A DNA stretch of 64,000 nucleotides, taken from Candidatus Doudnabacteria bacterium RIFCSPHIGHO2_01_FULL_46_24 (GTDB taxonomy: Bacteria > Patescibacteriota > Doudnabacteria > UBA920 > O2-02-FULL-48-8). The DNA lies in assembly GCA_001777575.1 (NCBI GenBank), contig MFEL01000010.1:20661-84660 (forward strand), read 5' to 3'. Under the pieces are notes generated by a model. The model saw only the letters and a list, made by a program, of their open reading frames with translations, was not told where the DNA came from and did not search any database. This document shows, piece after piece, positions 4,279 to 59,270 of the stretch. Position 1 is the first letter of the stretch. Every line of letters begins with the position of its first letter. The position numbers and the translations under genes are program-made.

Positions 4279-5409
4279 ATGGCAACAATAAATGTTGATG
4301 CAACCGAAGAAGAAAGGCTCAAGGAACAACTTGAAAAGCGCGCAGACTTTGAAGCGCAGCGAATCAGGCGGTATTTAAGCATGCCGGATTTATCAAGAAC
4401 CGAGGGAAGTCCGATTCAAGAAATTGTCAAGCGCGCAAGCCAGGTCAAAAGCCTGCAGGATTTCGACGTAATTCAAGTGCCGGAAATCGTGCCGGCGCAT
4501 ATCTTGTTTGACCTGTTCAACATGCCGCCGGGACATCCCGCGCGAAGCAAATCGGACACTTACTATGTTGACGAAGAACATGTGCTAAGAACCCATGACA
4601 CGGTTTTCTGGTATTACTATCTGAATGACCCGGCAATCAAACAAAGAATCGCGAATAAAGAAACACTTGGAACTATTTGTTACGGCAAAGTCTACCGCAA
4701 GGATGAGATTGACAGCAGGCACATGAATGTCTTTCACCAATTTGGCGCCTGGCTAATCGCGCCCGATGACAAGCAAATTTTCACTCCCGATGATCTCAAG
4801 CGAGCGCTGGCCGAGGTTGGCACGAGCGTTTTTGGCTCCACCAATTTTCGTTTTTATGACCACAACTTCCCCTATACGGATCCGAGCTTTGAAATGGAAG
4901 CGGAAATTAAAGGACAATGGATGGAAATGGTCGGCTCGGGAATGGTCAGAAAGACCGTGCTTAAAAATTTGGGCTTGGAGGGATATAACGGTTGGGCGTT
5001 CGGCTTCGGCCTGGAAAGGCTGGCGATTGCCAGCATGGATTTGCCGGACATCCGCCTGCTGTGGTCCCAGGACCCGCGCGTGACCAAGCAGCTTAAGCTT
5101 GGCCAAAAATTCGTGGAAGTCAGCAAATACCCGCCGATCACGCGCGACATCTCTTTCATCGTGGATAAAAATTTTGTGCCCAACAATTACTTCGACTTAA
5201 TCCGCGACATCGGCGGCGATCTGGTGGAGCAGGTCGAGCTTTTGGATAAATTTGAAAACGAAGCTAAATTCCACAAAGACAAAATCAGCTACACCTATCG
5301 AGTGGTTTACAGAAGCCCTGAGCGAACCCTTAAAACCGAAGAAGTTGAACCTCTGCAAGCCAAGCTTTATGACGAAACCAAAAAGCAGTTTAACGCAGAG
5401 TTAAGATAA
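4279..5409 (+). CDS. pheS: phenylalanyl-tRNA synthetase alpha-type catalytic subunit fused to a C-terminal FDX-ACB anticodon-binding domain (mitochondrial/monomeric PheRS-like architecture)
   Basis: Class II motif 2 YRKDEIDSRHMNVFHQFG and motif 3 GWAFGFGLERLAIASMDLPDIRLLW; C-terminal ~95 aa (SKYPPITRDISFIVDKN...YRSPERTLKTEEVEPL) resembles the PheT C-terminal FDX-ACB domain. Confidence 0.85.
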   Translation: MATINVDATEEERLKEQLEKRADFEAQRIRRYLSMPDLSRTEGSPIQEIVKRASQVKSLQDFDVIQVPEIVPAHILFDLFNMPPGHPARSKSDTYYVDEEHVLRTHDTVFWYYYLNDPAIKQRIANKETLGTICYGKVYRKDEIDSRHMNVFHQFGAWLIAPDDKQIFTPDDLKRALAEVGTSVFGSTNFRFYDHNFPYTDPSFEMEAEIKGQWMEMVGSGMVRKTVLKNLGLEGYNGWAFGFGLERLAIASMDLPDIRLLWSQDPRVTKQLKLGQKFVEVSKYPPITRDISFIVDKNFVPNNYFDLIRDIGGDLVEQVELLDKFENEAKFHKDKISYTYRVVYRSPERTLKTEEVEPLQAKLYDETKKQFNAELR

Positions 5410-5452
5410 TTGTTTCTGTGGATAACTTGACTACAAAGATCACCTTCGTAAT

Positions 5453-6838
5453 ATGGAAACAGAGCGCAATGTAATAAAAAAAATCTCCTCGGAGGGGGAG
5501 GATTGGGTTAACAGACGCGAATCTGCCAGAGAAGATGAACCGGAACATAAAAGGCAGGATATATTTGGCGCCAACTTTTTGCATTGGTGGAACATTGCGC
5601 ATAAAACAGGCGAGGATTGGTCTAAAATGACCGTTGGTCGTCTTGCGGATCATATCAACAAAACAGCTGACCAAACATGGAAACGGAATTTTAAGCGATT
5701 AGAAGAAGAGATGGTCGCGGGTGCAAAAACGGATCCCTGGTCTTTTCAGCAGTTTTTCGCAAATTATCTGATGGATAGAGTGCCCGATCTTGGGCGATTA
5801 AGTAAGCGCCTCGATTTAAGCATGAAACAGCCAAGAGCGAACCAGGATCTTATCCTGTTGGCGGCTGTGTTTGAGGGAGAAAGAGGAGCTAAAGCCACGG
5901 AACTGGGGATTAGTTTGACTGCGGAATATCAGAATGGCAATAAGATTCTCCCGGCAAAACTCGTGGCTTCAATGATTGATTATCATAGTCAGCATGTGTT
6001 GGAAAGCGAGCGCCAATTTATGGAAATGATCCCGGAATACTTGGACAAGATAAAAACGCTATTACTTGCCGCTTCTAATTCGGGAGAGATTCCGATAAAG
6101 ACAGATACGATTTTAGAACGCCTGGGGGCTTTACGTTTTGCGGTTGTGGACGGCCTGACTGCGAAACTCCGGGACTTTTCCGGCGACTTTAAAGACCACA
6201 CGCATACGATTAGAATCTCGTCTGAAGCCCGGCCCGAGCACGTTGGCATGATTATGTCCCATGAAATTATCCATGCGCTGGCTGGGCAACTGGAATATTC
6301 CAGCGTTTCGAAGGTGTTTGAAGATAATCCTGAACTCTTTGTTCTAGTCGAGCGTCATGAGTTATTAAAAGGCGGCTTGCACTTTAGTAAAGACGTTGGA
6401 GAAAAACAATCGGATTTGCCTTCTCTACGCTTGCGTTGGTTAAACGAAGCATTGACGGAACAAGCGGCAATCGATTTGGTCAAGGGAACGGAATACGTAG
6501 GCTTTGACACTTATGAGCTTGAAAGAAAACTTCTAGATAAACTGGTCGCTCTGGGTATATCAAAATCGTTGCTTTATGAGGCTTATTTTGAAAATTATGC
6601 GGCTGACTCTACCGGCGGACACCGCCTTCCCAAAACGCGGGAGTTATTTGAAACAGTCAATCGTTTGCTTGGCCGCGGCTTTTTGGTTAATCTGGATATT
6701 TATATAAGATCCAATCGAGACGGCGTAAAATTAGCATTGCAGAAATGGGAAGACCTAGGTGCTGAATTTCCGTCATTTATTAACGATTTCGGCGCAGGTA
6801 AAATTAAAGAATTAAGGGATAGTTCGGAATTAAGGTAA
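5453..6838 (+). CDS. hypothetical protein with HExxH...NEAxxE gluzincin-like motif (putative zinc metallopeptidase)
   Basis: MSHEIIHAL, then about 60 aa later WLNEALTEQAA (thermolysin-like NEAxSD pattern); no signal peptide; the start may lie further downstream (next candidate ATG about 5627). Confidence 0.4.
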   Translation: METERNVIKKISSEGEDWVNRRESAREDEPEHKRQDIFGANFLHWWNIAHKTGEDWSKMTVGRLADHINKTADQTWKRNFKRLEEEMVAGAKTDPWSFQQFFANYLMDRVPDLGRLSKRLDLSMKQPRANQDLILLAAVFEGERGAKATELGISLTAEYQNGNKILPAKLVASMIDYHSQHVLESERQFMEMIPEYLDKIKTLLLAASNSGEIPIKTDTILERLGALRFAVVDGLTAKLRDFSGDFKDHTHTIRISSEARPEHVGMIMSHEIIHALAGQLEYSSVSKVFEDNPELFVLVERHELLKGGLHFSKDVGEKQSDLPSLRLRWLNEALTEQAAIDLVKGTEYVGFDTYELERKLLDKLVALGISKSLLYEAYFENYAADSTGGHRLPKTRELFETVNRLLGRGFLVNLDIYIRSNRDGVKLALQKWEDLGAEFPSFINDFGAGKIKELRDSSELR

Positions 6839-16923: not shown

Positions 16924-16993
16924 ATAAAGTTCTGAGTTCTAAGTTTGTAAAGTCAAAAGCAACTTTATGAACTCAGAACTTAGAACTAAATCT
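16924..16993 (+). repeat. AGTTCTGAG/AGTTCTAAG palindromic repeat element, copy A
   Basis: tttataaagttctgagttctaagtttgtaaagtcaaaagcaactttatgaactcagaacttagaact; related copies at 20236-20286 and 59209-59270. Confidence 0.7.
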
Positions 16994-18095
16994 ATGGACA
17001 TTCAAGAGCTGATCAAGAACATCGAACAGCTCCAAGGCGATGCCGAGGCCTTGAAGGAGCACCTTTGAGCTGCCTCAAAATAAACAAAAAATTCTAGAGA
17101 TAGAAGACCGGATGTCAGCCCCTGATTTCTGGTCTGACCCTGCCAGGGCCAAAATCGTAGCCCAAGAATTAGATCGGGTTAAAACTGAGGTGTCAGGATG
17201 GGAAAAATTCGAGCAGGACTTGGCAGAGCTGGCAGGAATGGCTGAAATGGCTCTAAAAGAACAGGATAAAGCCCTGGAAGCCGACCTAATGGCAAAATTT
17301 GGCGATTTAAGAGGCCTATTCGAGCACTTGCGCCTTTCGACCTTTTTGAGCCAAAAATACGATAAAAACAACGCTTTTTTGTCCATCCACGCCGGCGCTG
17401 GGGGAGTGGACGCCCAGGACTGGGCCGAGATGCTGTTGCGCATGTATTTGCGGTTCGCGGAAAAAGAAAAATTCAAGGCATTGGTGGTTGACGAAAGTCG
17501 GGGCTCAGAGGCTGGCATAAAAAGCGCAGTGCTGGAAATTTCCGGCGCATATGCCTATGGTTACCTTAAAAGCGAAGCTGGCGTACACCGCCTGGTCCGG
17601 CTGTCGCCGTATAATCCTGCGCATACGCGCGAGACGTCTTTTGCGCTCGTCGAAGTCCTTCCAGCCATTGAGCAAGAGGAATACAAACTTAACCTAAGCG
17701 ATATTGAGATAGAAGCCAAAACTTCGCGGGGCCACGGCGGTCAAAGCGTCAACACGACTTACTCTGCGATAAGAGCGACCCACATCCCGACCGGAATCAC
17801 GGTTACCATCCAGAACGAACGCAGTCAAGCGCAAAACAAACAACAAGCCTTAAAAATTATATCGTCAAAACTCGCCGCTTTGGAAGAAGAAAAACAGCGC
17901 CAAGAGAAATTGGCCCTGCGCGGCGAGTTTCAGTCTGCCGAATGGGGCAATCAGATCCGATCTTATGTCCTTCACCCCTACAAACTAGTCAAAGACCACC
18001 GCACCGGCTTTGAGACCTCTGACGCCGAGTCTATTTTGGACGGAGAATTGGAGGAATTCATCAAGTCATATCTCGAGCATACGAAACAAAAGTAA
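16994..18095 (+). CDS. prfB: peptide chain release factor 2 with programmed +1 ribosomal frameshift: join(16994..17065,17067..18095)
   Basis: Frame-0 MDIQELIKNIEQLQGDAEALKEHL ends at CTT TGA (17063-17068), preceded by the SD-like AGGAG; the +1 frame continues ELPQNKQKILEIEDRMSAPDFW; GGQ motif present; SPY replaces the canonical SPF. Confidence 0.9.
17051..17069 (+). promoter_or_regulatory. RF2 autoregulatory frameshift site (internal SD AGGAG, CTT TGA G)
   Basis: aaggagcacCTTTGAg; arrangement analogous to E. coli AGGGGGuauCUUUGAC. Confidence 0.85.
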
Positions 18096-18790: not shown

Positions 18791-19707
18791 ATTTTTCAAC
18801 ATTTAACAGGCTGATCAGATCAGGCAGTACCAATTTTTTACGCAACCTTGGGGTGTCGCTTTCAGCCACCGCGATTATGGTTGTGACACTGTTCATTATC
18901 TCCACCGTACTGGTGCTTTATGCGCTGACTGACCTCTCGCTCAACAATGCCCGAGACCGCGTCGGGATCTCGGTCTACTTCAGCGACTCCGCGTCGACTG
19001 AAGAAATAGGCAGCGCCCGCGAGCAAATCCAAGCTTATCCCGGAGTCCGCTCCATAACTTTCACGTCCAAGGAACAAGCCCGTGACCGCTACATCGAACG
19101 GAACAAGAACCGGCCGCGCGCACTGGAGGCGCTTAAAGAACTGGACCGCGATACTGACCCGTTTCCCAATTCTCTGGCCATAACCGCGGATGAATTTTCA
19201 AATTACGAGAGCATCGTCAATTACATCAAAAGCGATCGATTTAAGTCGTATCTTTTGGAAGATGGCGTGCGTGACAACCGTAAAATCATTGACCGCTTGT
19301 CGCGCTTAACCGACGTGGTTAGGCAATTGGGGATAGCCCTAACCGTGGTATTCATCGCCGTCACCATCATGGTCATGTTCAACACCATCAGGCTGACTAT
19401 CTACAACCGGCGCGAAGAAGTGGAAATCATGCGCCTGGTCGGGGCGACCAACTGGTACATTCGCATGCCTTTCATCATCGAGTCGATCATTTATGCCTTA
19501 TTGGCGACCTTTATCACATCACTGGCGATGCTCCTGCTGCTTTCACTGACCTCCTCCCGGATTGAAACCTTTTTGGACCTCAAAAACTTAGGCGGCAATC
19601 TCATTCGGGGCATCTTTCCTTATTTGGTCGTGATAAACCTGTTTACCGGAATCGCGCTGGGGGTCATCGCCTCGACTATTGCCATGCGCCGTTACCTTAA
19701 GATATAA
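18787..19707 (+). CDS. ftsX: cell division permease-like protein FtsX
   Basis: 4-TM topology with a large periplasmic loop; follows ftsE with a 4-nt overlap. Confidence 0.85.
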   Translation: MNFSTFNRLIRSGSTNFLRNLGVSLSATAIMVVTLFIISTVLVLYALTDLSLNNARDRVGISVYFSDSASTEEIGSAREQIQAYPGVRSITFTSKEQARDRYIERNKNRPRALEALKELDRDTDPFPNSLAITADEFSNYESIVNYIKSDRFKSYLLEDGVRDNRKIIDRLSRLTDVVRQLGIALTVVFIAVTIMVMFNTIRLTIYNRREEVEIMRLVGATNWYIRMPFIIESIIYALLATFITSLAMLLLLSLTSSRIETFLDLKNLGGNLIRGIFPYLVVINLFTGIALGVIASTIAMRRYLKI

Positions 19708-19711
19708 TAGT

Positions 19712-19820
19712 TATGAATCCCGTTAGAAATTCACTTTCAAGTTTTTTTAGCATGAATTTGTTTTATGAAATGGGCCAGGGTAAACAGCGTTCACAGCAAT
19801 TAAATTTCTAAACGGGATGA
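19712..19820 (+). repeat. inverted-repeat (MITE-like) element, copy 1: TIRs TATGAATCCCGTTAGAAATT / AATTTCTAAACGGGATGAA
   Basis: About 19-bp terminal inverted repeats flanking about 70 bp; the 3' TIR contains the rplI ATG (19817); second copy at 40021-40130. Confidence 0.75.
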
Positions 19821-20242
19821 AAATCATCCTAACCAAGGACGTTCCGGGATTTGGCAGAGCCGGAGAAATCAAGGAGGCCAGCGACGGCTATGCCCGAAAT
19901 TTTCTGCTCCGCAGACGCTTGGCGCTGCCTGCAACCGCTGAACTTCTTGCCAAGGTGCAGATTGAAGAACAGACGCGCCAAAACAGGCTAAAAGAACAGG
20001 AAGAATCAGCCGGGGCACTTAAATACAAACTGGAAGCGAAAACATTCGTCGTTAAAGCCAAAGCAAACAAGGACAGGCTATTTGCGGCCATTCATGAAAA
20101 AAACATTGCTGCGGCAACCGGTTTGGATGCGAAGCAGATTGTCATAAGTGAACCGATCAAAACTTTGGGCATGCACGAAGTAGAAGCCAAACTGTTTGAG
20201 AATATTAAAGCTAAAATTAAAATTAGCGTCGAAAGTTTATAA
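19817..20242 (+). CDS. rplI: 50S ribosomal protein L9
   Basis: [31 protein letters not shown]. Confidence 0.9.
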
Positions 20243-20286
20243 AGTTACTTTTGACTTTACTCACTTAGAACTCAGAACTTAGAACT
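20236..20286 (+). repeat. AGTTCTGAG-family repeat, copy B (partial, reverse orientation)
   Basis: tttataaagttacttttgactttactcacttagaactcagaacttagaact ends exactly at the pyrG ATG. Confidence 0.7.
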
Positions 20287-21918
20287 ATGCTTAAGAATAA
20301 GCGAAGCACTAAATACATCTTTGTTTCCGGCGGCGTCATTTCCGGTCTTGGTAAAGGCATCACCGCGGCATCCATTGCCGCTATTTTAAAAAGCAAAGGC
20401 TTCAAAGTTTCCCCTGTGAAAGTTGACATGTACCTGAATTTCGATGCCGGCACCATCCGCCCGCAGGAGCACGGGGAAGTTTTTGTCACGGACGATGGGG
20501 TAGAGACCGACCAAGATTTGGGCCACTATGAGCGTTTTTTGGACACCGACCTTTCCAAAGTCAACTACATTACCACTGGACAAGTTTATTCCGAAGTTCT
20601 GCGCCGCGAGCGCGCCTTTGAATACGACGGTGAGGATGTGGAAGCCATCCCGCACATCACAGACGAAATCATCCGCCGGTTCAAGCTCGCCGGCAAAAAC
20701 GCCGATTTTGTCATTATTGAGCTGGGCGGCACGGTCGGCGAGTATCAAAACGCGATTTTTTTCGAGGCCTCCCGATTGATGAAATTGCGAAACCCCAATG
20801 ACATCTTGCAGGTACACGTCGCGTATCTGCCAATACCCGGAAATTTAGGCGAGATGAAATCCAAACCAGTCCAGCAGTCAGTCCGGCTGCTAAACTCCAT
20901 GGGCATTGAGCCGGATTTTATTGTGGCCCGCGCTTCCTACCCGGTGGACGACCGACGCAAAGAGCGGATAGCGCTTTTTTGCAATGTCAAAAAAGAGGAT
21001 GTCATTTCCAATCCTGATGTGCCGTCCATTTACGAAGTGCCGCTAATTCTGCAACAGCAGAAGTTAGGAGAGAAAATTCTGGCCAAACTGGGCTTGTCGC
21101 CGGGCAAAAAAGACCTTTCCCCCTGGAAGAGACTAGCCAGGGTCTTCAAAACCGTTCGCAAAGAAGTCAGAATCGCAGTGGTCGGTAAATATTTTGCCAC
21201 CGGCGATTATCATTTGTCAGACGTATACGTCTCCATTATCGAAGCCCTGAAGGCCGCGTCGTGGGCGAACAAGGTCAAGCCCAAGCTAGTTTGGTTTGAT
21301 TCGGAAAAATTGGAAAAAACCGGCGCCGAAGTCCTTAAGAGTTTTGATGGTATTGTCATTACCCCCGGATTCGGAAAAAGGGGAGTGGAAGGGCTCATCC
21401 AAGCCATCACCTATGCCCGCACTAAAAAAATTCCGTATTTAGGGCTGTGCTACGGCATGCAAATGGCCACGATTGAATTCGCCAGAAACGTTTTGGGGCT
21501 CAAAGGCGCCCACACCACCGAGGTAGACCCAAAAACGCCGCATCCGATAATCCACATTATGCCAGACCAGGAAAAGAAACTTTTGAAAAAAGATTACGGC
21601 GCCTCTATGCGCTTAGGAGCCTGGCCGTGCAACCTTAGGGAGGGCACGCTAGCTTATAAAGCTTACGGCGAGAAAAAAATCCTGGAGCGCCACCGCCACC
21701 GCTATGAATTTAACAACAAGTACCGCAAACAATTCGAAGCTAAAGGCTTCATCTTCTCCGGCACCACGCCTGACGGCCTGCTGATTGAGATTATAGAACT
21801 CAAAGATCACCCCTTCTTCGTCGGCACCCAATTCCACCCTGAATTCAAATCCCGCCCGTTAAATCCCGGCCCCTTGTTCAAAGAATTCATCAAAGCCGCG
21901 GTTAAAAATAAAAAATAA
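20287..21918 (+). CDS. pyrG: CTP synthase
   Basis: YIFVSGGVISGLGKGITAASIA; GATase LGLCYGMQ; HPEF. Confidence 0.95.
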   Translation: MLKNKRSTKYIFVSGGVISGLGKGITAASIAAILKSKGFKVSPVKVDMYLNFDAGTIRPQEHGEVFVTDDGVETDQDLGHYERFLDTDLSKVNYITTGQVYSEVLRRERAFEYDGEDVEAIPHITDEIIRRFKLAGKNADFVIIELGGTVGEYQNAIFFEASRLMKLRNPNDILQVHVAYLPIPGNLGEMKSKPVQQSVRLLNSMGIEPDFIVARASYPVDDRRKERIALFCNVKKEDVISNPDVPSIYEVPLILQQQKLGEKILAKLGLSPGKKDLSPWKRLARVFKTVRKEVRIAVVGKYFATGDYHLSDVYVSIIEALKAASWANKVKPKLVWFDSEKLEKTGAEVLKSFDGIVITPGFGKRGVEGLIQAITYARTKKIPYLGLCYGMQMATIEFARNVLGLKGAHTTEVDPKTPHPIIHIMPDQEKKLLKKDYGASMRLGAWPCNLREGTLAYKAYGEKKILERHRHRYEFNNKYRKQFEAKGFIFSGTTPDGLLIEIIELKDHPFFVGTQFHPEFKSRPLNPGPLFKEFIKAAVKNKK

Positions 21919-21942
21919 ACGGTTGGGCGCAGTCCTTAATGG

Positions 21943-21986
21943 CTTCTATTCTAAAGGCTCAACCGCGGTTGAGCCTTTAGTGTTTT
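21943..21986 (+). terminator. rho-independent terminator after pyrG
   Basis: AAAGGCTCAACC-gcg-GGTTGAGCCTTT followed by agtgTTTTTg. Confidence 0.8.
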
Positions 21987-22112
21987 TGCATCAAAAACTA
22001 GACTTAAAATCAAAGATTATACTAATATAGGCTCTACAAGGAGGCGCTATGACGCAAGATGAGATCAAGAATCGGAAAGCGGAGCTCGACCTTCAGCGGG
22101 CTATAGCAAGCG

Positions 22113-28938: not shown

Positions 28939-30255
28939 CTACAAAAATTCCAGAGGGTTGTAAGTGTAGCCGTAAGGCACTCGGTAAGGGCCAAAGACGT
29001 TTGTAAATTGCCCATCTGCCACGCCATAGCCTTCTTCGTCAAATAAGGTGAAGTGCAGGTGGTAACCGCGGTGCGAACCGTAAAGCAACCTGGTCGTATT
29101 GCCGGTATTGCCCTCAAAGCCGACGAGGTCGCCCATTTTGACTGTCTGTCCGACCTTGGCCTTAAAACTGCTCATATGCGCGTACAGACTGATAAGCGCC
29201 CGCCCGCCGGAACTTATGGTGTGCTTGATCGTCACCCAATTGCCATAAGCGCCCGCTCCGGTGCCGGCGTCGATCACCACGCCATCAGCCGCGGCGTAGA
29301 TTGGCGTGCCGGCCGGACCTGCAATGTCAATGCCATTATGGAAATTGTAGCCAAGCGCGGTAAATCCGGTATTGCCATAGCCTTGGGTCAAAACCCCGTC
29401 CATGGGCCAGGCCAGCAGGCCTTTCCTGGCCGGCAGCCGCCTGTTGCCGAGTTTGCTGCGCAGTTCCACTTCCAAATCGTAAATTTCGCGCGAGATTTGT
29501 TCTTCCAAACCTTTCTGCTCGGCCAAAAGTCTCTGGTAAACTTTTTCCTGGCCGCGGGTCTGGTCCAAAATCTGCTGCTTGGCCGTGCGCTGGCCTCTTA
29601 AACCGGCTTCGGCCTCCTCCAGCTGGCCGAGCAAATCATCCAATTTTGCTTTCTGCTTCTTTAAGTCGAATTGCCTTTGTTCAAGGTCTTGCTTAAGCCT
29701 TTTAATCTCGCCAAGCGCCTCATTCGTCTGATCCTGGATGGTGGTGGTGTATTGAATTTGATCAATGAATTCCGTAAGGTTGTCATTTTCCAAGGCGATT
29801 TCCAGCGGGCTCATTTCGTCCAGTTCATTGAGCTGGCGGATCAACTGTATGAGGTTTTCCTTGGTCTTCTTGATATCAGCTTGGGTTTTCACGATTTGGT
29901 CAGTGACCTCGGCAATTTCCAGGTTCGTCTCGTCAATTTTTTCGCGGTTGGCCTCGATCTGCGCTTCAGTCTCGGCGATTTCTAAATTGACCAATTTGAT
30001 TTCATTGCCCAACGAGCTGGCTTTGGCCTTGGTTTCCTTGATTTCGGACTGAATGCCGGATATTTTTTTGTTGATTTCATTCAGTTTCTGCTGTTTCTCT
30101 TGTTTGAGTTTCTGCAGTTCGTCAACGCTTTGGCCTGCTACCGGGGCATTAGAGTATAATCCAAACGCGAGCATTAGTGCCAATGCCCCGCTTAACCATA
30201 TTCGCTTGCCTGCCCCGTTAGAAAACCCGACGCAGGATATGTTAAATATACTCAA
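28939..30255 (-). CDS. M23-family peptidoglycan metalloendopeptidase with a long N-terminal coiled coil (EnvC-like)
   Basis: N-terminal signal/TM, about 250-aa coiled coil; C-terminal LytM domain HNGIDIAGPAGTPIYAAADG...HLHF. Confidence 0.85.
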   Translation of the reverse strand: MSIFNISCVGFSNGAGKRIWLSGALALMLAFGLYSNAPVAGQSVDELQKLKQEKQQKLNEINKKISGIQSEIKETKAKASSLGNEIKLVNLEIAETEAQIEANREKIDETNLEIAEVTDQIVKTQADIKKTKENLIQLIRQLNELDEMSPLEIALENDNLTEFIDQIQYTTTIQDQTNEALGEIKRLKQDLEQRQFDLKKQKAKLDDLLGQLEEAEAGLRGQRTAKQQILDQTRGQEKVYQRLLAEQKGLEEQISREIYDLEVELRSKLGNRRLPARKGLLAWPMDGVLTQGYGNTGFTALGYNFHNGIDIAGPAGTPIYAAADGVVIDAGTGAGAYGNWVTIKHTISSGGRALISLYAHMSSFKAKVGQTVKMGDLVGFEGNTGNTTRLLYGSHRGYHLHFTLFDEEGYGVADGQFTNVFGPYRVPYGYTYNPLEFL

Positions 30256-30356
30256 CGCAGCAATTTGCCAGTTATTACAGGTTTTGAGTTTTCTCTTTGT
30301 TTTTCTAACGGGGTAAATTTTGATTTCAAGTAAGAAATCATCCTGTATATATTATA

Positions 30357-39384: not shown

Positions 39385-40026
39385 TTAAACCTCAAGCCAA
39401 TTCTGCTCTCGCAAATCATTGAATTCAATGTCTGCCTTGGGTAAAAAAGTTTTGGGAATTCCGTGATGACCGCTAAACATGCTGATATTAATCATGGCAT
39501 CATGAACCGGAAACGCGATTTTGGGTTTGATTGCTATGGCATAATCAACCGCATCAGAAATTTTGAGCCACGGCCCGGCCACTGGCAGCGCCAAAATTTC
39601 AACCGATTTTTTCGGGTTATAAAGGCTGTCGCCAGGGTAAAACAATCGATCAGCAATCATAAACCCTGTGTTTTGGACCTGTCCATATTCCTGATAAATC
39701 ACGGCATGTTTTTCGCCGTGCCCTTCGAGTGTAATGCCCTTGAAATTTTCGCTCTGTCCATGCTCAAGCAAGCTAAAAGATATCTCGGCTTCTGACAAAA
39801 TTTTGCCAACGGCTGAATTGGTCCATATAACAGCCGCGGGATTATTCTGCAAAATTTTTTTGACCGAGTCCATGTGCAAATGATCCGAATGTTCGTGGGT
39901 GATCAAAACCAAATCAATATTTTTGATTTCATTCTGGGCCGTACTCCAAGCGCCGGGATCAGTCAAAATCCTGACTCCATTTTCTTCGATAAGCAAACAG
40001 CAATGTCCCGGTTTTGTAATCTTCAT
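39385..40026 (-). CDS. metallo-beta-lactamase-fold hydrolase
   Basis: LVLITHEHSDHLH (HxHxDH); start ATG lies within the repeat TIR. Confidence 0.8.
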   Translation of the reverse strand: MKITKPGHCCLLIEENGVRILTDPGAWSTAQNEIKNIDLVLITHEHSDHLHMDSVKKILQNNPAAVIWTNSAVGKILSEAEISFSLLEHGQSENFKGITLEGHGEKHAVIYQEYGQVQNTGFMIADRLFYPGDSLYNPKKSVEILALPVAGPWLKISDAVDYAIAIKPKIAFPVHDAMINISMFSGHHGIPKTFLPKADIEFNDLREQNWLEV

Positions 40027-40130
40027 CCCGTTTAGAAATTTAATTGCCTAGATTAATAGTTGAAACTTGATATTCCTGTTTAGCGATGCCTCCTTGAAGC
40101 TAGTCTAAAAAATTTCTAACGGGATTCATA
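40021..40130 (-). repeat. inverted-repeat (MITE-like) element, copy 2, inverted relative to copy 1
   Basis: TIRs CTTCATCCCGTTTAGAAATTT (40021-40041) and AATTTCTAACGGGATTCATA (40111-40130), identical to the copy-1 TIRs; the MBL start codon lies in the TIR. Confidence 0.75.
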
Positions 40131-40276
40131 ATTGATCAATTTTGGCAGCCATAATAAAATCATTTTCCGAAAGCCCGCCGATGGCATGCCAGATTCGCAC
40201 GGCACGCATTTTTTGTGAATCAATTTCATATAGGCATTTTAGCACAAAAAAACAAGCAAAATCTGGAAGCCAACAC

Positions 40277-58309: not shown

Positions 58310-59209
58310 TTATCCCGAGCGACGCCTTTGCCAATTGTGCCACACCAAAAGCAACGGCGAGGCGATGAAAATCGAAGAATAAGTCCCAGCCGTGATGCCA
58401 ACCAAAAGCGCCAGCACGAACCAGCGAATAGTTTCGCCGCCGAACAAAAGCAGAGCCAGTAGCACGAAAATCACGGTTAAGGAAGTGTTAATGGATCGCA
58501 CTAACGTCTGGTTGATGCTGTTACTGATAATTTCCGATAACGGCAGTCCACCGCTGATTCGCAGATTCTCGCGGATGCGGTCAAAGACCACGATGGTGTC
58601 ATGCACCGAAAAGCCCAGCACAGTCAAGAGGGCTGTAATAAACAAACTGTCGATTTCGACGTGCAAGAACCGGCCCAAAATCGCAAACACGCCGATGACA
58701 ATCATCAAATCATGGACCAGGGCAACGATCGCGGCGATGCCGAATTTCCAAGATGACACGGGTTTGGAAACTTTTCTGAAAGCGTAGGCAATGTAGAAAA
58801 TGATGCCGAAACTGACCACGATCAGCTGCAACATGGCGGACGAGCGTAGCTCCCTGCCGATAACCGGACCGATGGAAGTAAACTGCTCCTCCTCCACCAA
58901 GCCGTATTTGTCCCCTAAAACCTGAAGCAGTCGGTCATGTTCTTTTTTTTCCATGGGCGGCGTTCGGACAATCGCCGACCTCTCCCCTGCCGGCTGGACA
59001 ACCAAATCGCCGAAATTGCTGTCACCCAAGAAGCCTCTGATTTCAGCCGCACTCGGCACATTGTCGCCAAACTTGACTTGGGTTAACGTTCCGCCATTAA
59101 AATCGATGCCAAAATTCAAGCCAAAGGCGATCAATGCCGCGATGCTGATTGCCAGGGCAACGCCTGAGACTAAAAACCAAAATTTGTAGTGCTTAATGAT
59201 GTTTAGCAT
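58310..59209 (-). CDS. secF: protein translocase subunit SecF
   Basis: 6 TM, ALVHDLMIVIGVFAI. Confidence 0.9.
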   Translation of the reverse strand: MLNIIKHYKFWFLVSGVALAISIAALIAFGLNFGIDFNGGTLTQVKFGDNVPSAAEIRGFLGDSNFGDLVVQPAGERSAIVRTPPMEKKEHDRLLQVLGDKYGLVEEEQFTSIGPVIGRELRSSAMLQLIVVSFGIIFYIAYAFRKVSKPVSSWKFGIAAIVALVHDLMIVIGVFAILGRFLHVEIDSLFITALLTVLGFSVHDTIVVFDRIRENLRISGGLPLSEIISNSINQTLVRSINTSLTVIFVLLALLLFGGETIRWFVLALLVGITAGTYSSIFIASPLLLVWHNWQRRRSG

Positions 59210-59270
59210 AGTTCTGAGTTCTAAGTTTCTAAAGTTAAACGCAACTTTATGAACTTAGAACTTTATAAAC
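59209..59270 (-). repeat. AGTTCTGAG-family repeat, copy C, between the secD stop and the secF start
   Basis: tagttctgagttctaagtttctaaagttaaacgcaactttatgaacttagaactttataaac; abuts the secF ATG. Confidence 0.7.

Follow-up and report, generated by a model that had tools for sequence, protein, structure and literature searches.

Probable MITE-like insertion elements at start codons in Doudnabacteria and other Patescibacteria

Two loci in the analyzed stretch of 64,000 nucleotides from a Candidatus Doudnabacteria genome (the window) are probably copies of a non-autonomous, palindromic, MITE-like insertion element, a reading to which we give a probability of about 0.6. A terminal inverted repeat of 14 bp, 5'-ATCCCGTTAGAAAT ... 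ATTTCTAACGGGAT-3', placed around an arbitrary AT-rich interior, defines the family to which they belong. It is apparently an undescribed and very widespread family of palindromic insertion elements of the CPR/Patescibacteria, landing exactly on start codons. These bacteria represent a large part of bacterial diversity and have tiny, streamlined genomes. In the literature searched, no MITE or repeat family was described for them, and nothing relevant was found for the arm sequence, for start-codon MITEs or for such an element.

Elements in the window

The original prediction of two inverted-repeat loci in opposite orientation is borne out at 19713–19821 (plus strand, copy 1) and 40022–40129 (minus strand, copy 2). 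It had described terminal repeats of about 19 bp; the inverted repeat itself stands, while its length is 14 bp (ATCCCGTTAGAAAT) family-wide and the outer ATGAA belongs to a direct repeat. The arms at both loci read ATCCCGTTAGAAAT ... ATTTCTA(A)ACGGGAT. Exact matches to AATCCCGTTAGAAATT occur in the window exactly twice (19716–19731, plus; 40111–40126, minus), as do exact matches to AATTTCTAAACGGGATGAA (19803–19821, plus; 40022–40040, minus), for which 0 of 100 shuffles gave two matches. The pattern ATCCCGTT[N]AGAAA is matched four times, compared to 0.01 expected. The interiors differ between the two copies, as had been noted, and show no alignment except for ∼8 nt beside the gene-side arm.

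Copy 1 is located between the ftsX stop codon (19705–19707) and the rplI ATG at 19817, with the layout TT ATGAA T CCCGTTAGAAAT (73 nt) ATTTCTAAACGGG ATGAA AATC. Its left direct repeat ATGAA (19713–19717, plus) corresponds to the original rplI start position, a single ATGAA/ATGAAA being present at the empty sites of L207 and L214. This repeat is followed on the same strand by the gene-distal arm ATCCCGTTAGAAAT (19717–19730), a 73-nt interior (19731–19803) that aligns neither with copy 2 nor with the orthologous L210 element, and the gene-proximal arm ATTTCTAAACGGGAT (19804–19818), which has one extra A compared to the family consensus. The last AT of this arm provides the A and T of the start codon of rplI (19817–20242, plus; ribosomal protein L9), whose ATGAA is the right direct repeat. 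A 32-codon ORF (19713–19811, plus) extends from the left ATG across the element and stops at a TAA in the proximal arm, 5 nt short of the rplI ATG. A putative promoter-like site, TTGCCA-18-TATAAT (19679–19708, plus; 11 of 12 consensus positions), lies inside the 3' end of ftsX and ends 4 nt before the left ATG; the TTGCC..TATAAT upstream of copy 1 is kept in relatives, but the coding sequence constrains it too.

Copy 2 has the same layout on the minus strand, before an MBL-fold hydrolase gene (39385–40026, ATG at 40026). It comprises a left direct repeat ATGAA (40125–40129), whose TGA (40128–40126) is the stop codon of a remnant pterin-4a-dehydratase gene, the gene-distal arm ATCCCGTTAGAAAT (40112–40125), a 72-nt interior (40040–40111) and the gene-proximal arm ATTTCTAAACGGGAT (40025–40039) with the same extra A as copy 1; the ATGAA of the hydrolase gene (40026–40022) is the right direct repeat. 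The claim that an arm supplies the ATG of the adjacent gene is thus literally correct for the A and T of the codon, at both rplI and the hydrolase gene. The pterin-4a-carbinolamine dehydratase gene upstream of copy 2 (∼40126–40230, minus) looks like an internally deleted remnant, with N-terminal MKLIHKKCVPCE... and C-terminal ...HAIGGLSENDFIMAAKIDQL* in different frames, the intact gene of relatives being ∼105 aa.

The prediction had counted two copies in the window. Both are confirmed, and an additional, degenerate copy with arms CCCGTTAGAAAA and TTTTTCTAACGGG and no ATG repeat is located at 30214–30312 (minus), in the predicted 5' end of an M23-peptidase gene (28939–30255); it is assigned to the same family with lower confidence. 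Another family member is found at an M23 peptidase start in L107. The M23-peptidase ORF near the third copy seems to start at a TTG within the element.

A second, different inverted-repeat family, composed of heptads (T/C)AGAACT, was noticed at window positions 16926–16988, 20258–20286 and 59210–59262, directly before the starts of prfB (ATG 16995), pyrG (ATG 20287) and a gene at 58310–59209 (minus), with seven matches to the pattern compared to 0.8 expected. The prfB gene contains the usual CTT TGA programmed +1 frameshift site at 17060–17070; because of this frameshift, the gene begins only at 17112 in the ORF list, downstream of its true start at ATG 16995. Within one strain population, contig L201 differs from L202/L203 (positions 5102–5983; window ∼21918–22104) by ∼695 nt between pyrG and rpmA, as derived from gene coordinates.

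A family associated with start codons

A genome-wide search for the terminal repeat, which had been suggested as a check, was run across genomes and found dozens of further copies. We scanned one genome per species with the pattern ATCCCGTT[N]AGAAATT, requiring one exact 15-mer arm, so that the resulting set of at least 120 loci is a biased sample. At least about 53–55 of these loci have paired inverted arms 14–270 nt apart; the single arms at the remaining loci look like the chance matches expected for a 15-mer. Among the matches listed, the paired loci are mostly from Patescibacteria by record title, including Saccharibacteria, Nomura-, Kaiser-, Yanofsky-, Zambryski-, Doudna-, Moranii-, Campbell-, Colwell-, Kerfeld- and Portnoybacteria, and Paceibacterota. 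Carriers outside the CPR, with labels taken from MAG records, are a few Planctomycetota (Sedimentisphaerales, Phycisphaerae, Planctomycetaceae), one Omnitrophota and one Stahlbacteria, and only three viral contigs contain copies.

The elements are 38–296 bp in length and contain only incidental short ORFs. Their arms are near-invariant, and the consensus of 47 gene-oriented elements reads A-T-G-A-A-T, CCCGTTAGAAAT ... ATTTCTAACGGG, A-T-G-A-A. The interiors (14–270 nt) are AT-rich and unrelated, with no conserved motif at a fixed position and no alignment between loci. A curated structured RNA, such as an Rfam leader or riboswitch, was considered and rejected: no Rfam family was matched, whether the gathering threshold or E up to 10 was applied, and RNAalifold detected 0 compensatory pairs in 15 aligned members.

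An arm abuts the ATG (twice GTG) of a long ORF (60–750 aa) in 47 of about 60 distinct elements, and in those 47 the base after ...CGGG is the A of the start codon. The genes affected include dnaA, dnaN, smc, uvrD, recR, rarA, secG (twice), hpf (twice), rplI (three lineages), murF and ftsI, as well as pyk, pgm, galU, corA, hisA, rsmE and an M23 peptidase gene. We discarded a regulon or operator interpretation, since these are functionally unrelated, ordinary genes of many kinds. About half of the elements are within 30 nt downstream of a co-directional ORF. The ATGA stop/start overlap was also considered as a general target and rejected, as it is present in only 5 of 47.

Only 2–3 elements are located at an ATGAA other than a gene start, so the association with start codons is stronger than a 5-nt target alone would give. 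Other intergenic ATGAA are, by our estimate, about as numerous, and the near-exclusive association with true starts, left unexplained by such a target, counts against a mobile element. Such an association would require an enzyme with further specificity, or selection by which copies at other places are lost or eroded.

Evidence for mobility

The flanking 5 nt are identical on both sides in 32 of 47 elements, and these repeats co-vary (ATGAA in 24, ATGGA in 6, as well as ATGAG and ATGTA). Elements away from start codons have other repeats, such as TTTA, TCAA and CATA. The repeat length is not strictly constant, varying between 0 and 5 nt under one boundary model, which counts against the mobile reading; under a T..A boundary model, 34 of 47 elements give a 4-nt repeat. 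The bases beside CCCG and CGGG are always T and A. Because of this invariance, the simplest reading is that the element has 14-bp ends AT... ...AT and a 2-bp duplication (GA, GG, GT, TT, CA, AT); alternatively, it has T...A ends and a 4-bp duplication.

Integration takes place within the start-codon region, typically at AT-GA-A, and duplicates a short target of minimally 2 bp, usually GA; since the element has A..T ends, the duplication looks 4–5 bp long (TGAA/ATGAA). The far side keeps the original ATG together with its native upstream signals, such as an ATGA overlap, a TATAAT box located 6–8 nt upstream, or the stop codon of the gene before. On the gene side, a new ATG is formed from the terminal AT of the element and the duplicated G, and the reading frame of the gene is therefore untouched.

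Comparison with orthologous loci revealed clean empty sites in relatives at both window loci. The relatives were obtained by a protein search and contig look-up; a metagenome search with the L9 protein returned only relatives of ≤43% identity. The ftsX-rplI site is empty in L207–209 (ftsX-TAA-TA-ATGAAGG) and L214 (TAA-TACAGAC-ATGAAAG), and filled in L210, with the same extra-A arm as in copy 1; a possible collapsed relic is present in L211, which contains ATGAAGCGTTAACGGAAATGAAGG. The MBL gene has no element in relatives with 82% and 66% protein identity, of which L221 retains an intact ATGA stop/start overlap; copy 2 is therefore a fairly recent insertion. The secG site is filled in two Yanofskybacteria (L049, L093), where the elements are 95% identical at the nucleotide level compared to 77% for the gene, and empty in L222, a closer relative, as well as in L223 and L224. 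Two public gene calls at these loci deserve mention: at L207 (1071–1085), the call starts at a downstream TTG (TTGTCA) and not at the ATG (ATGAAGGTT), and at L220 (∼1170–1200), the MBL gene call starts at a downstream TTG, 10 codons short.

Further signs of movement come from the arrangement of copies. One is nested (L107), others are in tandem (L015, L072, L076), and several elements are found within single 8-kb loci (L055, L076, L107), with 2–3 in the 64-kb window. Two loci of one MAG, L070 and L090, have paralogous interiors (85% over 53 nt). Arm-2 bp-arm junctions are seen in L055 (...CGGGAT GA ATCCCG...) and L015 (...CGGGAT TC ATCCCG...), and solo gene-side arms adjoin an ATG in L080 and L055. 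The empty sites, together with the nested, tandem and paralogous copies, indicate a mobile insertion, not an inherited leader. Thus, of the two readings first proposed, that of a MITE-like mobile element is favored by the further copies, the empty sites, the co-varying direct repeats and the arrangements above, while an ancient conserved leader is not supported, given the unrelated host genes, the absence of the element in close relatives and a stem without covariation. As in MITEs, we find terminal inverted repeats, a flanking duplication, a small size with no transposase ORF, and both empty sites and multiple copies.

The arms pair at ∼95–100% over exactly 14 positions (ATCCCGTTAGAAAT and ATTTCTAACGGGAT), and at the next position pairing is down to background. 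Arm mismatches comprise 4 G·U and 9 A·C, with no bias towards wobble pairs. Judged from the invariance across phyla, the sharp 14-bp limit, the missing compensatory changes and the lack of wobble bias, the arms look like protein-recognized DNA ends. They may be recognition sites for a putative trans-acting transposase or recombinase. A candidate would be an enzyme with a 2-bp stagger, for example IS30-family-like or a serine recombinase, with which the arm-2 bp-arm junctions in L055 and L015 would fit. IS30-family elements produce 2–3 bp duplications and IR-2 bp-IR junction intermediates. The minimal 2-bp duplication and the junctions resemble those of this family; no IS30-like transposase or autonomous copy was found here.

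No autonomous copy, and no transposase or recombinase with these ends, was detected in the sample, where the search reached arms up to 300–4000 nt apart (600 nt in collections) and greater distances inside the fetched 8-kb loci, and this counts against the mobile reading. Unpaired arms with distant partners were considered as autonomous copies and rejected, being either chance matches in non-CPR genomes or separated by ordinary genes, and a Pfam analysis of the neighbors of multi-element loci identified only housekeeping genes. A 14-bp end that stays invariant between phyla, with unrelated interiors, is also unusual for MITE families, and a fixed polarity (described below) is not expected of a symmetric cut-and-paste transposon without selection or a directional recombinase; both count against mobility.

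Among known systems, the closest parallels are bacterial MITEs, especially Correia of Neisseria (also ERIC/IRU, RUP and MITEAba12), which likewise are non-coding and small (∼100–150 bp), end in inverted repeats and duplicate a short target. Correia elements have a 26-bp terminal inverted repeat and a TA duplication and are found in Neisseria; in the present family, the ends are ATCCCGTTAGAAAT, the duplication is GA or TGAA, and the hosts are Patescibacteria. Correia-type MITEs similarly have many copies just upstream of genes that are co-transcribed as hairpins. The present elements differ from Correia, ERIC and RUP in their end sequence, in a start-codon target (ATGAA) instead of TA, and in an element end that rebuilds the ATG. 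They also differ in their unrelated interiors, their fixed polarity, the occurrence of the same ends in many Patescibacteria classes and other phyla, and the lack of a known parent IS. Effects of Correia on expression include promoters, an IHF site and RNase III processing (PMC10969869).

Rickettsia palindromic elements (RPE) and mitochondrial byp elements are similar in being palindromic mobile inserts tolerated in or at coding sequence. In byp elements and in the phage T4 gene 60 bypass, identical codons are present on both sides of a hairpin-forming gap, like the flanking ATGs here. Unlike RPE and byp, the present elements are inserted at the very start of the gene and not in frame (104 nt between the two ATGs of copy 1), with no evidence of bypassing.

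Expression of the downstream genes and alternative readings

Once transcribed, the two arms of each window copy could pair as a 14-bp helix in which the A and U of the AUG take part. The suggestion that the leaders form a long stem-loop over the start codon was examined by RNA folding: the helix over the AUG is present, with modest z-scores of −0.9 and −2.4. Of 56 long window ORFs, only ∼10 have an SD-like motif no more than 20 nt from the start, and many have a TATAAT-like box 6–8 nt before the ATG, which suggests that the window genome uses leaderless or non-SD initiation. The searched literature contained nothing relevant on leaderless initiation or SD usage in CPR. A comparison of the arms with the 3' end of 16S rRNA, using a single CPR 16S end, gave no convincing complementarity. 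The 16S 3' end of a Nomurabacteria MAG (L071, ∼686–770), ...GGTCGTGGAATAATTCAATTTG, has no CCUCC anti-Shine-Dalgarno after the conserved TGGA.

If such a helix is transcribed in a host mostly without Shine-Dalgarno sites, expression may need one of three routes. In the relay that we favor, ribosomes would start at the retained left AUG, which in copy 1 opens the 32-codon ORF, and melt the helix. Alternatively, an internal decoy box could pair with the far arm, as in other members and not clearly in the window copies, or transcription could start inside the element. A left-ATG ORF running to the arm TAA, 4–5 nt before the gene ATG, is shared by copy 1, L210 (read by eye) and seven other elements; most stop earlier. 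As a general mechanism, this relay was rejected, being available in only about 9 of about 45 elements.

The decoy box, [AG][AG][CT]GGG[AG]T, is complementary to the outer 8 nt of the far arm (AUCCCGUU) if G·U pairs are counted. Of 50 interiors, 15 contain it (shuffle mean 0.5, maximum 3), mostly 0–30 nt after the far arm, compared to 2 of 50 for the mirror-image box of opposite sense (shuffle mean 0.9). Opposite U7, the box has a purine in every case (12 A, 11 G), while the arms always have A there. No clear decoy box is seen in copies 1 and 2 of the window. All four Doudnabacteria copies carry the extra A in the arm next to the gene; this, together with the box bias, indicates that the orientation of the element is fixed relative to the gene. 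In the part of the family that contains it, the box is best read, from its sequence pattern, as a sense-strand pairing signal, in RNA or single-stranded DNA, and it hints at a sense-strand fold that may keep the start codon usable.

These features can be combined into a more tentative extension of the mobile reading, in which a recombinase or transposase system would integrate a hairpin at AT-GA-A across the Patescibacteria as a start-codon-homing element, with the damage neutralized by the rebuilt ATG, the left-ATG ribosome relay and the polar decoy box. We consider this extension possible, and favor it less than mobility as such.

It is unlikely, in our judgment, that the element is a host cis-regulatory RNA, in which the far arm pairs with the start-codon arm (OFF) or with the decoy box (ON), read by a conserved RNA-binding factor or the ribosome, with mobility being historical and secondary. 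The OFF state would correspond to the helix holding the A and U of the AUG, but the low z-scores of the window leaders, a fixed 14-bp stem with no compensatory changes, and A·C mismatches at least as common as G·U in the arms argue against this reading. The ON state would account for the box bias (15 vs 2 of 50 interiors) and for the A/G pattern opposite U7, a wobble-tolerant signature of the sense strand, and yet the window copies themselves have no clear box. The higher conservation of the secG element (95%) than of its gene (77%), the solo gene-side arms at an ATG (L080, L055) and the rare use of SD sites by the window genome would also be consistent with regulation; however, the element is absent from close relatives at all three sites examined, the host genes have no function in common, and no Rfam match is obtained even at E up to 10.

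We also find it quite improbable that the element is a mobile promoter or leaderless-start cassette, with an outward promoter in the AT-rich interior or at the TAATTT/AAATTT of the arm's inner edge and transcripts that begin at or just before the rebuilt ATG. Such a cassette would explain the start-codon association by selection, since only insertions with the arm exactly on a start codon would keep the gene expressed, and outward promoters are known in other bacterial MITEs such as Correia (PMC10969869); here, however, neither a −35 nor a −10 is conserved at a set position of the interior, and a promoter scan found none inside the window copies, the sole match being upstream of copy 1. The gene-side arm always ends at the ATG and leaves no room for an SD site, in a window where ∼10 of 56 genes are SD-like and many TATAAT-like boxes are located 6–8 nt before the ATG, and solo gene-side arms persist beside an ATG, as would be expected of a cassette; nevertheless, only a minority of elements have the arm's best −10-like hexamer, which is 8 nt away from the ATG.

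Integron attC and other folded single-strand sites share with the present elements conserved inverted outer boxes around a variable centre (RYYYAAC / GTTRRRY, resembled by TTCTAAC / GTTAGAA), an extrahelical base on one arm that gives polarity, and a strand-specific fold signal. An attC site was rejected, given the reversed box order (GTTAGAA ... TTCTAAC), the absence of a nearby integrase or cassette array, and the start-codon location. More generally, a site-specific recombination switch (inverton) or attC-like site, whose arms would serve as recombinase sites to flip or exchange the interior, is very improbable: the same inverted repeat with variable centres at many loci, the likeness of GTTAGAA / TTCTAAC to attC R'/R'' boxes, the identical arms with unrelated interiors at orthologous rplI sites, and the palindromic arm-GA-arm junction in L055 fit it, but the whole unit is absent from relatives and flanked by direct repeats, orthologous elements in the assembled contigs are collinear, not inverted, with six strain contigs identical, many interiors, at 14–50 nt, are probably too short to be inverted as double-stranded DNA, the boxes stand in the opposite order to those of attC, the neighbors are core syntenic genes (ftsE-ftsX-rplI-pyrG at the rplI site) and not cassettes, and in the Doudnabacteria copies it is invariably the gene-side arm that has the extra A.

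The preferred reading remains that of a MITE-like insertion element, and one 14-bp end is kept across many CPR classes and some Planctomycetota, on the starts of essential genes (dnaA, dnaN, rplI, secG, ftsI). If this reading is true, the family marks a broadly shared recombination system and offers a natural experiment on how translation that is leaderless or independent of SD sites copes with a stable hairpin over the AUG. It would also serve as a warning for gene callers, as several public models start at the wrong codon near elements (for example, L207 and L220). If the start-codon-homing reading is true as well, these elements would constitute a new class that parasitizes, and maybe tunes, translation initiation in organisms largely without Shine-Dalgarno initiation.
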